This document shows positions 58,936-63,997 of a stretch of 63,997 bases of DNA, in pieces (the first letter of the stretch is position 1; each line of letters starts with the position of its first letter). Both the position numbers and the translations under genes were made by a program. The notes beneath the pieces were generated by a model. The model did not search any database, was not told the origin of the DNA, and saw only the letters and a program-made list of their open reading frames with translations. The stretch is from Pirellulaceae bacterium (GTDB lineage Bacteria > Planctomycetota > Planctomycetia > Pirellulales > Pirellulaceae): assembly GCA_041739545.1 (NCBI GenBank), contig JBGSNR010000042.1, forward strand, positions 1-63,997, in the 5' to 3' direction.

Positions 58936-59520
58936 TTGTCATCATCGAGCAGTTCGTCTTCTGAATCTTCCGGTTCTTCCTCAAGCTCGTTGTCGAGCAG
59001 TTCCTCGTCAAGCAGCAGTTCCTCGTCGAGTAGTCCACCCCCGCCGCCACCGAGTTCTTCTTCCTCAAGCGGCCCACCGCCTGATTCTTCTTCCAGCAGT
59101 TCATCGTCGCCGGAAAGTTCGTCGTCTTCCAGTTCACCATCGAGTAGCAGTTCGGGTGAACCTTCTAGTTCGTCTTCATCGTCGAGTTCACTCTCCAGCA
59201 GCTCGTCGTCGGAAAGTTCCAGCAGTTCTTCAACCAATAGTAGCAGCTCCTCGTCCTCGAGCAGTTTCAGTTCTTCGTCTTCCAGCAGCTCCTCGTCGAG
59301 TTCAACATCCAGCAGCTCCTCATCAGATAGCTCGTCGAGCAGCTCTTCATCGCCATCCTCCAGTTCGTCGAGCAGCAGTTCGTCGCCAAGCAGTTCGTCG
59401 AGTTCTAGCAACAGCCCTTCGAGCAGCAGCAGTTCAAGTTCCTTGCCCAGTAGTTCCTCTTCAAGTAGCTCGTCGTCGAGCAGCGGTTCGAGTTCGACGA
59501 GCGGCAGCAGCAGCAGCAGT
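58936..59520 (+). repeat. ~585-bp serine-codon low-complexity tract (poly-Ser N-terminal region of the Rhs/YD gene)
   Basis: Translates as ~195 residues that are more than 80% Ser (MSSSSSSSSESSGSSSSS...). The antisense poly-E/L/D ORF 58764..59411 is its mirror. Confidence 0.8.
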
Positions 59521-62500
59521 TCCAGTTGCCAGCCGAACCTGAGTTGCGCGGGCGCGCCGGACTACATGGAGGCCAAGTGCGAAGACTGCGGCTGCGAATG
59601 CGGCGGTGAAACGGGCGTTTGTCCCCATACTGGCGCGGCGCAGGTCAAACAAGCGGGATCATTCTCGACCGTGTCGAAGACGGGGGGCAAGTATTCGAGC
59701 CGCTGGCTGAAGAGTGGGACTTTGGCCACGTTCGATTCGGCGGCGGGCAAGAATTGGATGAGCGGCAGCCTGCCGTCCCTCTCGCAGTGCAGTTCCGGTG
59801 AAGTCGCGGTAACCTTCGATCTCTGCACGGCCTACTGGTTCTCGGCATCGGGCGGGAGTTACAGTCCCCGTTTTGGTGCGAAACAGGAATTGGTGTTCGA
59901 CAGCACGCTCTGCCGGTTCATCTTCAAGGACTGCAACGGCGACGTGTGGCGGTTCACGAACAAGGGCGGCTTCGACAGCGTTAAATATAAGGACGCGCGT
60001 CAGACAGCGGTCACCGAGCGAACCTCGGACGGCAAGATTAAGAAAATTGCAAGGACCGTCACCCAGAACGGCAAGACGACAACCGACGCCAACGTCTTTG
60101 AATATTATGACGGCGGCGCGGCGGCGGGCCTGATTAAACAGGTCACGTTTCAGCGGTCGGTGAATCCTACGGTCGGCATTCGCCGCGTCGTTTATGCCTA
60201 CTATGGCGTGGACGAAGAGCATGGCAGTGCCGGTGACTTGAAGACGGCTACGGAGCAGTTGTTGATCGGCACGTCGTGGGTGGATAAGGACACGAGTTAT
60301 TATCGGTATTACAAGTCGGGTGAACCGGGCGGTTTCGAACATGGACTATAGTTCGCGCTGGGGCCGGAGGCCTTCGAGCGTCTTGAAAGTGACTCCCAGG
60401 TTTCGGCTCCGTTTCTGGCGACGGATGCGCAGGTCGCTCAGTACGCGGACCATTATTATGAGTACGATGCGCAGCAGCGGGTGACGAAATCGGTGGTCAA
60501 TGCGGGGCTGCACACGTTTACATACGCCTACCAGACCAGCGCCCACAGTGACGACTACAACCACTGGAAACTAAAGGTGACGCTGACGAGGCCCGACGGC
60601 AGTCAGCAAATCACCTACAACAACTTCATCGGCCAAGCGATGCTCACCGACCTGACGACCAGCGGTGATCACTGGGTGGAGTACCACCAGTTCGATGGCC
60701 AGGCTCATGAAGTGCTACACGCTGCGCCTTCGGCCGTGGTCAGTTATGACGATAGCGCAGACGATTTGGACGTGGTGCTGCACGCCGCCGCTGGCCTAAT
60801 GCAACTGACCGATTATTACGCCAGCACCACGGCGACTCCGACCACGCCCGGTGGCGCAGCTGGATACGTCCAAGCGAGGAAGGTGCAACAGGGCAGCACT
60901 GGAACACCGATCAAGCTTGCGGAAACCAAGTACTACAAGCGCGTGGCGGACTCCGTCACGATCTACCCGGTCGCGGAGGCAACCACCTTCCGCTTCGACG
61001 ACGGCACGGGGGCGATCACCACTAGCTTCGCCTACACTTGGTTCACAGATACCACGCAAATCCAGCAAAAGACGACTACCCTTCCGGTTATCCCCAGCGG
61101 CCAGAACGGCGCTGGCGCGACGGATACCATCACCCAGATCTTCGACGAAGAAGGTAATCTGATCTGGCAGCGCGATCCACGGGGCTTCATCACTTATCGG
61201 GCTTATGACCTGCCGACCGGCGCGGTGGTGCAGGAGATTCGAGATGTCGACGGCTCGAAGCTGACGCTGCCCAGCGGTTGGACGACGCCCTCCGGCGGCG
61301 GCTTGCATCTGGTCACCGATTTCGAGCATGACGCCTTGGGTCGGACGACGCAATCGCTGGGACCGGCGCATGAAGTCAATGGCCAGACGGTTCGCACCGT
61401 GAGTTGGATGGTCTATCTCGACCTGGAAGATGAGACCCGCTCGGGGCAAGGATATGCGGTGGGGACTGCGGATGAGTACCACTACACTTTGGTGAATCCC
61501 GTCTCGATCCAGAGAGTGTCTCCCGATGGAAGAACGCGGGACTCAATTGTGGCGGTGCGTCACTGCTGGACGGAGACCGCTTGTCCGTGCGAGTTAGCCG
61601 ATGCCGGAGAGATTGAAAGCGTCGGACGACTGTCTGCGAGCGACTGCTTCCCGCAGTCTTCCTGGGTTCGTTGGTCGCAAACTTTGGCAAGCGACCAAGG
61701 CCAGGTCACTTCCGGCCGTACCTATCATCAGATTCCCACCTGTGGCACAGGATCGGTCGGTGTCAATTACGACCAGACGTTGTATGGCTACGATGTCATG
61801 GGGCGGCAAAACAAGATTGTCTCGCCCGCCGGTACGATCAGCCGCGCGGTTTTCGAGGTGCGCGGCTTGGACGTCAGTAGTTGGATTGGCACCAACGACA
61901 ACGGCGCAACCGACTCCGACCCCTCCGGGGGTGGTGCGGCCGGCAACAATATGGTCCGGGTCGCGGCGAATCAGTATGATGGTGGCAGCGCAGGGGGCGA
62001 CAGCAATCTCACGCAGCAAGCTCAGGACGTCGATGGCTCAACCACGCGAGTTACTATCTTTCAATACGACTTCCGCAATCGCCGAACAGTTGTGGACGGC
62101 GAGATCGACTTCTATCAAGAAACGGTCTATGACAATCTTGATCAAATTATTCGCGTGGACCGCCGCAACACATCAGCGGTTGGCAACCTGATCGCGCGAA
62201 ATGAAACCAAGTTCGACAATCGCGGACGCGCCTATCAAACGATTCACTATGCCGTAAATCCCGCCACGGGCGCTGTCGGCAACAGCCTGACGGACAATAC
62301 GTTCTTTGACGCCTCGGGGAACATCGTCGAAAGTTATCCTGCCGGCAGCGAGGCATTTACCAAGTTGACCTACGATGGGGTCGGTCGACTCACGGTGCGC
62401 TATGTCGGTTATGAGGGAGGTTCGGAATCATCCTCATCTTCCTCGTCATCGTCCGGCGGAGGCGGTGTAGTGGCCGGCGACGTGATCTTCGAGCAGTCGG

Positions 62501-63997
62501 AAACCATGTACGACGCTGCAGGCAACGTCGTCTTCACAATCAATCGGCAGCGATTCCACGATGCGACTGGGACTGGACCGCTACAAGGGCCGAATGGGGC
62601 ACAGCCCCAGAGCAGGGACAGCTATGTCGCCATGTGGTACGACGGCGTGGGACATCAGATCGCCACAGCCAATTACGGCACCAACGATAATGCTGGATCG
62701 CCGATTCGCCCACCGGAGCCACCAGTATCCAGCGATCCAGTGTTAGTCAGTCAAACCCATTACAACGAGCGCGGCGAAGCCTTCGAGACGGTCGATCCGG
62801 CAGGTATGGCTAATCGAACCTATGCCGATCACGCGGGCCGCACGATTCGGACGGTTCAGAACTTCATACCTTCTCCCTCGCCTAGGTTGGGCGAGTCTGG
62901 TAGGGAGGAGTAACCGATGGTGAGTTGCCTGACAGCCGGTGATGAGCAGAACGTGGTTACGGAGATGCGTTACGGTCCCGGCGGGCAGTTGGTGGCGCTC
63001 GTAGCCAAGAATCCGGTGACGGGCGACCAGGTTACGCGCTACGAGTACGGTGTGACGCCGGCGGAGAGCGGAATTGCGTCGAACGATCTTCTTCGGGCCG
63101 AGATCTATCCCGATGCGGCCGGCTCGACCGATCGCGTGAGCTATGCCTACAACCGCCAGGGTCAGCGCACCCAGATAACCGACCAAAATGGCTCGGTCCA
63201 CCAGTTCGAGTACGACCTGCTGGGGCGTCAGACGGCGGACAAGGTCACAACGCTGGCGGCGGGGGCGGATGGCGCGGTGCGGCGCATTGCCCAATCCTAC
63301 GAAGTACGCGGCCTCGTCGAGAAGGTGACCAGCCACAGCGCCGCCGCGGGCGGCAGCGTGGTGAACGAGGTGCAAATTGTCTTCAACAGCTTTGGCCAAC
63401 TCACGGCGCAGTACCAGGAACATTCCGGTGCGGTGAACACGGGTACGACGCCCAAGGTCGAGTACGCTTATGCCGACGGGAGCGCGAACACGATTCGTCA
63501 AACCAGCCTGACCTATCCCAATGGGCGGGTACTCAACTATCGCTACGACGACACTCACGCCGACAAGCTCTCGCGCATCCGCACGCTGCGTTGGGACGGC
63601 ACCGACGTCTGTCGCTACAGCTACCTGGGCCTTTCGACGTTCGTCACGACCGACTATCTCCAGCCGCAGGTCAAGTTGGATTACGCGCTGGGGAGCGGCT
63701 CGAATCCTTACACGGGCTTCGACCGCTTCGGACGGATCATCGACCTCTTGTGGGCCAAGTACGGCTCAAGCAGTTCCTCCTCGTCGTCTTCCAGCGGCGG
63801 GGCGGGCAATGACCTGGTGCATCTGAAGTACGGCCATGACCGGGCCAGCAATCGCACCCATCGTGAAGACCTCGTGGCGCAGAGCTACGGCAAGGACTTC
63901 GACGAACTCTATGAATACGACGGCCTGCACCGGCTGAAGAAATTCCACCGCGGCAGACTTACCGAAGATAACCGGACAATTACCAGCCCCACGTTCC
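58936..63997 (+). CDS. Rhs/YD-repeat family protein in one reading frame with two in-frame stop codons (TAG 60349-60351, TAA 62911-62913); 3' end beyond window
   Basis: All three segments (58936-60348, 60352-62910, 62914-63997) are in frame 1 with no frameshift. YD-repeat signatures run throughout (YEYDAQQRV, TFQYDFRNRR, TYDGVGRLT, MYDAAGNVV, WYDGVGHQI, HYNERGEAF, YEYGVTP, FEYDLLGRQ, YEYDGLHRL). Sequence reads naturally across both stops (..GFEHGL*FALGPEAF.., ..GREE*PMVSCLTAG..). Interspersed poly-Ser linkers occur at ~62430 and ~63766. Confidence 0.7.

Follow-up and report, generated by a model that had tools for sequence, protein, structure and literature searches.

How can a reading frame of more than 5 kb carry two in-frame stop codons and not a single frameshift? 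This question is raised by an Rhs/YD-repeat locus of a Pirellulaceae bacterium (assembly GCA_041739545.1), located at the end of contig JBGSNR010000042.1. The stretch analyzed here, referred to as the window, is the entire NCBI contig of 63,997 bp, and the contig end cuts the last gene. The original prediction described one giant gene with two nonsense mutations and named very recent pseudogenisation, sequencing or assembly errors, and regulated readthrough as possible explanations. The explanation favored here, which is considered likely, is that the locus represents a two-gene Rhs polymorphic-toxin operon in which the TAA at 62911–62913 is a gene boundary and the TAG at 60349–60351 is a separate, recent nonsense mutation, the copy in the window being most likely inactivated. 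All features lie on the plus strand unless stated otherwise; related loci are cited by L numbers and related proteins by P numbers.

Translation of positions 58876–63996 confirms the basic observation. One open frame extends from the TAG at 58915–58917 to the contig end, it is broken only by the TAG at 60349–60351 and the TAA at 62911–62913, and no frameshift occurs along it. The assignment to the Rhs/YD-repeat family is also correct: the RHS_repeat family (PF05593) is matched on either side of the TAA (second piece of the frame, E = 1.9e-7; third piece, E = 1e-7), and the conceptual translation, used as a query, retrieves 119 relatives, mostly from Pirellulales/Planctomycetota, about 1900 amino acids (aa) long and annotated as RHS repeat-associated. 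The relatives of about 1900 aa cover 95–100% of the query and span both stop sites. The predicted seamless continuity across both stops is thus only partly retained, since homologs align over both sites and the TAA sits in a lineage-specific insertion. Codon reassignment is excluded, as had been argued, because the 35 long open reading frames (ORFs) of the window end at TAG 14 times, at TAA 11 times, and at TGA 10 times.

The key evidence comes from the surroundings of the TAA. The sequence TAA CCG ATG GTG AGT TGC (62911–62928) comprises the stop of gene 1, a spacer of 3 nucleotides (nt), and the start of gene 2, and the DNA consensus of the split loci reads ...GAGGA(C/G) TAA C(C/T)G ATG (G/A)(T/C)G AGT TGC... 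In the sequences examined, the pattern TAAC[CT]GATG[GA][CT]NAGTTGC occurs eight times, namely in the window and at seven other places on six related Pirellulales contigs. It follows a gene 1 in the window, L011, L012, and L013, and it heads stand-alone cassettes in L011 (at 16283), L014, L015, and L016, where the upstream sequence is unrelated. The proteins P0009 (78% identical) and P0016 (64%) terminate precisely at the position of the window's TAA, and on L011/L012 and L013, the contigs that encode them, the following gene call begins 4 nt past the end coordinate of the preceding one. In unsplit relatives, the same site reads GAG GGC TGC TTC TGC CCC GGC (...GEGCFCPG...). The difference between the split and unsplit forms is a 15-nt in-frame block, TAA CCG ATG GTG AGT, together with a variable tail of 9–13 codons; genes 1 and 2 share one frame because this block is an in-frame insertion. 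The tail of gene 1 in the window (62869–62910), PSPSPRLGESGREE, ends in the Shine–Dalgarno (SD)-like sequence GGGAGGAG (62903–62910); it has no counterpart in unsplit homologs and varies among split ones. In an alignment of 20 homologs, the TAA falls in an insertion that the other sequences lack, and a neighbor-joining tree of the 300 aa after the junction places all split forms in one clade, with the unsplit L010 as its sister.

The distribution of the junction was also studied in metagenome contigs of the Joint Genome Institute (JGI). An exact scan for the junction motif in these contigs gave 0 matches, and a protein-guided scan found four loci (L019–L022) with 61–72% identity, all without the split junction, three of the four reading GEGCFCPG. 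The possibility that the insertion is a palindromic element of the repetitive extragenic palindromic (REP) or miniature inverted-repeat transposable element (MITE) type was rejected, as no second copy occurs in the window or in nine loci and its hairpin does not outperform shuffled sequence. Judged from these comparisons, the TAA at 62911 is a normal, conserved stop of gene 1 and not a nonsense mutation. The idea of one giant gene with two nonsense mutations is therefore abandoned: the TAA is a shared boundary, and the relatives L011, L012, and L013, as well as the independent cassettes, carry separate genes with their own ATG at this point. Comparing orthologues at the two stops accordingly gives opposite outcomes, as the TAA is kept as a stop in split relatives and the TAG site holds a sense codon (Lys, AAG or AAA) in seven loci. 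Only one nonsense mutation is left, and therefore the combination of two nonsense mutations with zero indels is no longer a puzzle.

The locus is thus described by two genes. Gene 1, termed rhsN (58936–62913), has 1325 codons counted from its TTG start. A poly-Ser leader and a Cys-rich motif precede the N-terminal two thirds of the Rhs shell, and the TAG lies at codon 472 of the gene. Gene 2, the rhsC cassette (62917–63997), corresponds to the C-terminal third of the shell, of which 360 codons are present, and its toxin tip lies off the contig. In the proposed mechanism, gene 1 would supply the N-terminal two thirds of the Rhs beta-shell, headed by the leader of about 195 aa and the Cys-rich motif, and gene 2 would be separately initiated and would supply the last ~640 aa of the shell, followed off-contig by an autoproteolytic core end and a variable toxin. 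The 15-nt insertion would have turned an ancestral single ORF (...GEG-CFCPG...) into a stop, 3 nt, and a start, with GAGGA as the likely ribosome-binding site. The retention of GAGGA in orphan contexts, where it is free of coding constraint, suggests such a role. The two polypeptides may then form a single cocoon in the manner of TcB and TcC, and the extra gene-2 cassettes could provide exchangeable toxins, either in trans or via recombination at the shared junction and shell sequence.

The TAG at 60349–60351 has a different character. It replaces a Lys codon (AAG to TAG) and is a lineage-specific nonsense substitution. The codon at this site is AAG or AAA in L001, L002, L005, L010, L011, L013, and L017 and TAG in the window alone, and all 20 aligned homologs have K or R at this residue. 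The protein P0022 (L017), considered as a second split near this position, is uninformative, as it derives from a long-read contig of 1.97x coverage with many breaks. At otherwise invariant columns, the window shows 3 private changes, compared with 2–8 in intact homologs, and the ratio of nonsynonymous to synonymous substitution rates (dN/dS) is 0.06–0.10 on either side of the TAG, not above the value for L010 versus L011. Because the window lineage shows no relaxed constraint, the lesion is judged to be very young. The next in-frame start lies 43 codons downstream, within conserved sequence, and on this evidence there is no functional restart after the TAG. Taken together, the comparisons identify the TAG as a nonsense mutation that is unrelated to the TAA, arose very recently by an A-to-T change in a conserved Lys codon, and truncates gene 1 after 471 codons. 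Very recent pseudogenisation, one of the explanations first offered, fits this stop.

Two further degenerative changes, both private to the copy in the window, are found at the locus. The initiator of gene 1 is TTG in the window and ATG at the same position in five homologous loci. In addition, a GT1-type glycosyltransferase gene on the minus strand (57956–58621), divergent from the rhs operon, is truncated at its 3' end; it encodes 221 aa instead of about 346 and retains only the N-terminal Rossmann half. Its product is 60.5% identical to residues 64–263 of the L001 ORF translation (~346 aa from the likely start), and the homology ends at 'AVQYAN'. It has no Pfam hit, and the L011 orthologue matches Glycos_transf_1 at residues 228–330, the part that is lost in the window. 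Because the TAG is combined with the ATG-to-TTG change of the start and the loss of half of the adjacent glycosyltransferase, the rhs copy in the window is most likely a freshly inactivated locus.

One rival explanation holds that the TAG stems from an error in sequencing or in the consensus, or represents a minority variant, and that gene 1 is intact in the organism. A single-base change in a metagenome-type contig, at a locus where constraint is not relaxed, would be compatible with such an error. It is nevertheless unlikely, as the Logan contig L018 (run SRR28170468) is 100% identical to window positions 59334–61516 over 2183 bp, TAG included. An assembler artefact is improbable for the TAG because this independently assembled contig carries the same stop, and the sequencing or assembly error that had been proposed is unlikely here. 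The TTG start and the truncated glycosyltransferase, as two more degenerative changes, also speak against it.

The properties of gene 2 and of its stand-alone copies determine how the downstream part should be understood. The complete gene-2 orthologue in L011 has 831 aa, and its residues 590–650 correspond to the core end in Rhs proteins of known structure. In L011, a 256-aa ORF resembling leucine-rich repeat proteins follows gene 2, and since a second junction copy (16283) comes after both, this locus carries a tandem cassette array. Upstream of the L015 cassette stand a 179-aa ORF and, before it, the final part of a different Rhs core with its toxin; L016 retains some 20 codons of a gene-1 tail, with unrelated sequence before them; and in L014, whose cassette has 94% aa identity to gene 2 of the window, only ...TGGGAGGAG TAA CCG is left upstream. 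The conserved ATG is the start of each of the four orphan cassettes, where it comes after GAGGA(C/G) (GAGGGC in L015) and then TAACCG. The cassettes are open for 300–830 codons, except that L016 has one in-frame stop and that L014 and L015 end early. Pairwise dN/dS values of the cassette 5' regions, orphans included, range from 0.05 to 0.21, with 0.15 for gene 2 of the window versus L014. These values argue against dead remnants and point to cassettes under purifying selection. Exchange between lineages is also visible. L013 is a mosaic in which gene 1 is 77–78% identical to the unsplit L002/P0003/P0004 group and 65% identical to the window, while gene 2 is 82–85% identical to the window and L011; it follows from this mosaic that cassettes and junction were exchanged between lineages.

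An alternative view of the same cassettes regards the split as an old inactivating lesion and the cassettes as displaced, silent pieces of rhs that, like classical orphans, would have to recombine into an intact gene before they could be used. Arrays of such orphans are a familiar sight downstream of rhs genes, and L015 and L016 keep differing stubs of the gene-1 tail, which is typical of C-terminal displacement. This view is quite improbable, though, because every cassette starts at the same ATG after GAGG(A/G)(C/G) TAA C(C/T)G, because the cassettes stay open for 300–830 codons at dN/dS values of 0.05–0.2 (apart from the in-frame stop of L016 and the early ends in L014 and L015), and because gene 1 before the split stays intact in L011 and L013. 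Under the favored two-gene operon, the source genome is predicted to hold at least one additional copy of TAACCGATGGTGAGTTGC. As a separate observation, the contig end at 63997 falls in the part of gene 2 that is best conserved between cassettes, which would be expected if the genome held several cassettes that break the assembly.

Regulated stop-codon readthrough or suppression at one or both stops, yielding a full-length fusion protein, is very unlikely. Genes 1 and 2 do share a frame at every docked junction, with no frameshift, but an insertion of 15 nt makes this trivial. Orphans headed by the same motif have nothing upstream from which readthrough could proceed, and no stable or unusual RNA structure is found at the junction, where the predicted fold is no better than that of shuffled sequence (z = 0.09) and the hairpin is unremarkable. 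The window contains no suppressor tRNA, and TAG and TAA together terminate 25 of its 35 long ORFs. The proposal of readthrough is further unsupported because the TAG is not conserved, being private to the window, and because a conserved start codon stands downstream of the TAA. Least probable of all is a single giant rhs gene recently killed by two independent nonsense mutations, for although homologs of about 1900 aa continue over both stop sites, the sulfatase gene of the window (51277–52714) is frameshifted, and the neighboring glycosyltransferase is truncated, the TAA with its downstream ATG recurs at seven other places on six contigs, including intact two-gene loci down to 65% gene-1 identity, both parts are under purifying selection, and a nonsense mutation arising by chance would not be shared, nor would it lie inside a conserved 15-nt insertion.

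Several points weigh against the two-gene operon or limit its details. The closest overall relative, L010 (81% identical), is unsplit; because of this, the history of the split needs recombination or a secondary fusion. Only 6 of the 36 genes of the window carry an SD-like motif, the background being 10%; such motifs are thus rare in this genome, and GAGGA may for this reason not be a classical ribosome-binding site. Gene conversion between cassettes could depress the apparent dN/dS, and the Logan contig may share reads with the NCBI assembly, so that it rules out an assembler artefact and not a population polymorphism. No TcB-specific domain is detectable in gene 1, as Pfam finds neither a beta-propeller nor an SpvB domain. 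Past the contig end lie the toxin and immunity gene of the source genome and any additional cassettes. Finally, both the initiation of gene 2 at the junction ATG and the assembly of the two products in trans are what we infer from sequence.

The start and architecture of gene 1 can be described in more detail. The first possible start of the rhs frame is the TTG at 58936. The orthologues in L011 and L012 are intact from their ATG to the same TAA, and the L013 copy is intact from the beginning of its contig up to this stop. Automatic annotation places the start at the internal Met at 59566 (P0001, P0002, and P0241, the last with 261 aa). This Met was considered as the true start, with the poly-Ser region untranslated, and rejected: it cannot be the conserved start because it is missing in L002 and L013, and the ATG-SSS start is conserved. 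A Cys-rich motif, C-x5-C-x10-CxxCxCxC-x6-C (59527–59628), stands directly after the leader. No Pfam domain is found in the first 471 aa of gene 1, and no recognized trafficking module was detected (signal peptide, PAAR, VgrG, LXG, TcdB/TcaC, and similar), the N-terminus being Met/Leu followed by poly-Ser without a hydrophobic segment.

The fold of gene 1 was assessed with an AlphaFold2 model of the orthologue P0009, which is 78% identical and is not the window protein itself. The model shows an all-beta Rhs sheet with a predicted local distance difference test (pLDDT) score of 89.2 and a predicted template modeling (pTM) score of 0.82. Confidence is low only at residues 1–6, in the internal poly-Ser loop, in a Cys-containing loop, and in the C-terminal tail that derives from the insertion and is disordered. 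A Foldseek search with this model gives Rhs cocoons, teneurins, and TcB-TcC as the best PDB matches (E = 1e-29 to 1e-17), and a gene-1 profile has no sequence match in the PDB. The further poly-Ser linkers that had been noticed near 62430 and 63766 were located at 62416–62466 and 63757–63807. The former, a poly-Ser/Gly loop within the shell, is Ser-rich in 8 of 16 aligned homologs, and its equivalent is the low-confidence segment 907–916 of the P0009 model. The latter, KYGSSSSSSSSSSGGAG, belongs to gene 2 and is present in 12 of 16 aligned homologs. Family members in metagenome-assembled genomes are frameshifted in the same shell region in L005 (~10666–10705) and L006 (~10100–10900) and may be pseudogenes or assembly errors.

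The N-terminal leader (58936–59520) is unusual and may be glycosylated, as the original prediction had suggested. It comprises 195 aa directly after the initiator codon, of which 81% are Ser (158 Ser in the first 195 codons, with all six Ser codons used), and it contains no hydrophobic segment resembling a signal peptide. Conserved PPPP...PPPD islands interrupt it and are common to the poly-Ser leaders of relatives, the leader being kept in at least 7 loci. In-frame N-terminal Ser tracts of 130–300 aa with an M-S-S-S-like start, placed before the Cys-rich motif, occur in L001, L002, L005, L010, L011/L012, and partly in L013. In L002, a second ORF (3325–4539) has an identical 101-nt upstream region and the same 'MSSSMPDPSSS...' leader as the neighboring rhs gene, and its cargo is an unrelated 275-aa domain with no Pfam match. 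The leader is modular, since L002 carries it on this unrelated cargo. In the literature that was searched, no relevant description of poly-Ser Rhs proteins from Planctomycetes turned up.

Glycosyltransferase genes are regular neighbors of this leader. Genes of the GT1, GT2, and DXD types flank the rhs gene in L001, L002, L005, L010, and L011, with a methyltransferase gene in L011 as well. The cluster upstream of rhs in L011 (284–8857) includes GT34-like, GT64, GT2, and GT1 genes, a gene for a 738-aa multi-glycosyltransferase with a DXD region, and the methyltransferase gene; parts of it are common to L001, L002, L005, and L010. In the window, only the truncated glycosyltransferase is left at the rhs locus. 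From this synteny, the leader, a conserved modular N-terminal domain, probably serves as an O-glycosylated flexible stalk or as an export or anchoring module. P0029 and P0071 contain GT2 and Glyco_transf_7C domains in the same polypeptide and could have glycosyltransferase toxin tips; these fusions were not used as evidence of self-glycosylation, as the domains may be toxins (PMC3482391).

The poly-Ser tract also produces a mirror image on the opposite strand. The antisense 'LDEELL' ORF (58764–59411, minus strand) is not a gene. Its frame is free of stops because Ser codons, read as reverse complement with a one-base offset, give only GAN or CTN. Similar acidic, Leu-rich antisense ORFs have been annotated by gene callers in L010 (2536–3105), L011 (8876–9523), and L012 (284–868), where the rhs start is truncated. 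The option that they are real genes was discarded, since they are a mechanical product of the Ser codons and neither their start nor their tail is conserved.

The closest parallel to the proposed operon is the TcB/TcC system, represented by Photorhabdus TcdB2-TccC3 and Yersinia YenB-YenC, in which an Rhs cocoon is built from two adjacent genes. Natural and engineered B-C fusions of Tc toxins work. As in TcC, the second gene encodes the final ~640–715 aa of the shell together with the aspartyl-protease core end and a hypervariable toxin, and several alternative copies of this gene exist. When a gene-2 profile is aligned with TcC proteins, residues 311–663 of TccC2 correspond to profile positions 300–641 and residues 502–689 of YenC2 to positions 454–641, position 641 being the Rhs core end. 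TccC3 in the TcdB2-TccC3 fusion is offset by about 73 residues, and the TcC offsets, counted from the shared core end, range overall from +11 to +75. Because these offsets are small, gene 2 starts roughly where TcC proteins start. The systems also differ. Gene 2 matches Rhs proteins of type VI secretion systems as well as or better than TcC, and there is no close sequence relationship. The window and L011 contain no TcA-like gene. The split in Pirellulales is recent, consisting of a 15-nt insertion within a clade of single-ORF relatives, and the N-terminus is poly-Ser. Since the propeller and SpvB domains and a TcA partner are lacking, the Pirellulales pair is not a member of the Tc family.

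A second parallel is provided by the C-terminal displacement and orphan rhs-CT (C-terminal) systems of E. coli and Salmonella (Zhang et al. 2012, PMC3482391; Stårsta et al. 2020, PMC7043789). There too, tandem 3' rhs copies with alternative toxins follow the main gene, as in L011 and L015, and mosaicism of the L013 type indicates recombinational exchange. A partial precedent exists in Salmonella, where orphan toxins can be expressed internally (PMC7043789). The Pirellulales unit differs in three respects: it spans about 830 codons, a third of the shell and not the tip alone; the cassettes always begin at one exact junction with their own ATG and an SD-like sequence, whereas classical orphans are taken to lack a start of their own; and the main gene itself is split at the cassette junction.

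For the leader, the nearest likenesses are serine-rich proteins. Serine-rich repeat glycoproteins of the Fap1/GspB type also place a long Ser tract beside dedicated glycosyltransferases of the GT1(GT4), GT2, and DXD types, as seen in L011. In contrast to them, the Pirellulales loci have no signal peptide, LPXTG motif, or accessory SecA2/SecY2, and the tract is extremely N-terminal and nearly pure Ser. The poly-Ser linkers of secreted bacterial glycoside hydrolases are likewise mixed-codon Ser runs, and the loops at 62416 and 63757 resemble such short linkers. Those linkers, however, are about 10–50 aa long and stand between domains after a signal peptide, whereas the Pirellulales tract has 130–300 aa and is N-terminal on a toxin shell.

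The surroundings of the operon complete the description. The tRNA-Met (CAT) said to precede the locus was confirmed by ARAGORN at 57665–57739, and a terminator scan places a terminator-like hairpin after it at 57786–57822. The original prediction regarded this tRNA as a typical insertion point of an island. No att-like direct repeat of its 3' end occurs elsewhere in the window, the guanine–cytosine content is not deviant, and the far end of such an island would lie off the contig. The divergent intergenic region between the two divergent start codons (58622–58935; no strand assigned) presumably holds the promoters, with weak consensus matches only. Just past the tRNA-Met lie an ADP-ribosylglycohydrolase gene (55266–56273) and a weak Peptidase_M90-like gene (56415–57125), both on the minus strand. 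The sulfatase gene, also on the minus strand, is frameshifted near 52030–52080, not at a homopolymer: a 230-aa ORF matches Pfam Sulfatase positions 1–134, and an overlapping 268-aa ORF in another frame matches positions 143–300 and Sulfatase_C. Because this gene is frameshifted, real gene decay does occur in this genome.

The findings have consequences for annotation as well as for biology. The family is systematically mis-called, as the leader is replaced by the antisense 'LDEELL' ORF and the rhs start is shifted to an internal Met, and a split rhs locus can be mistaken for a pseudogene. The window's own copy is probably dead, which limits its own significance. A broader, tentative possibility is that a Pirellulales Rhs clade has independently re-invented the TcB/TcC arrangement, pairing a constant gene, which encodes a poly-Ser-led and probably O-glycosylated shell, with one or another of several cassettes of about 830 aa that initiate on their own, carry the shell end and a toxin, and are all marked by the conserved 18-nt junction, and that the leader could be an undescribed module for trafficking or surface display. 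The leader and the glycosyltransferase cluster, in proteins that lack the known Rhs trafficking domains, point to an unexplored export or display route in Planctomycetota. The locus would represent a natural, recently evolved Rhs cocoon split at a TcB/TcC-like position, whose mutational origin is still legible as a 15-nt in-frame insertion, and the cassette arrays suggest that toxins may be exchanged combinatorially without the need for recombination.

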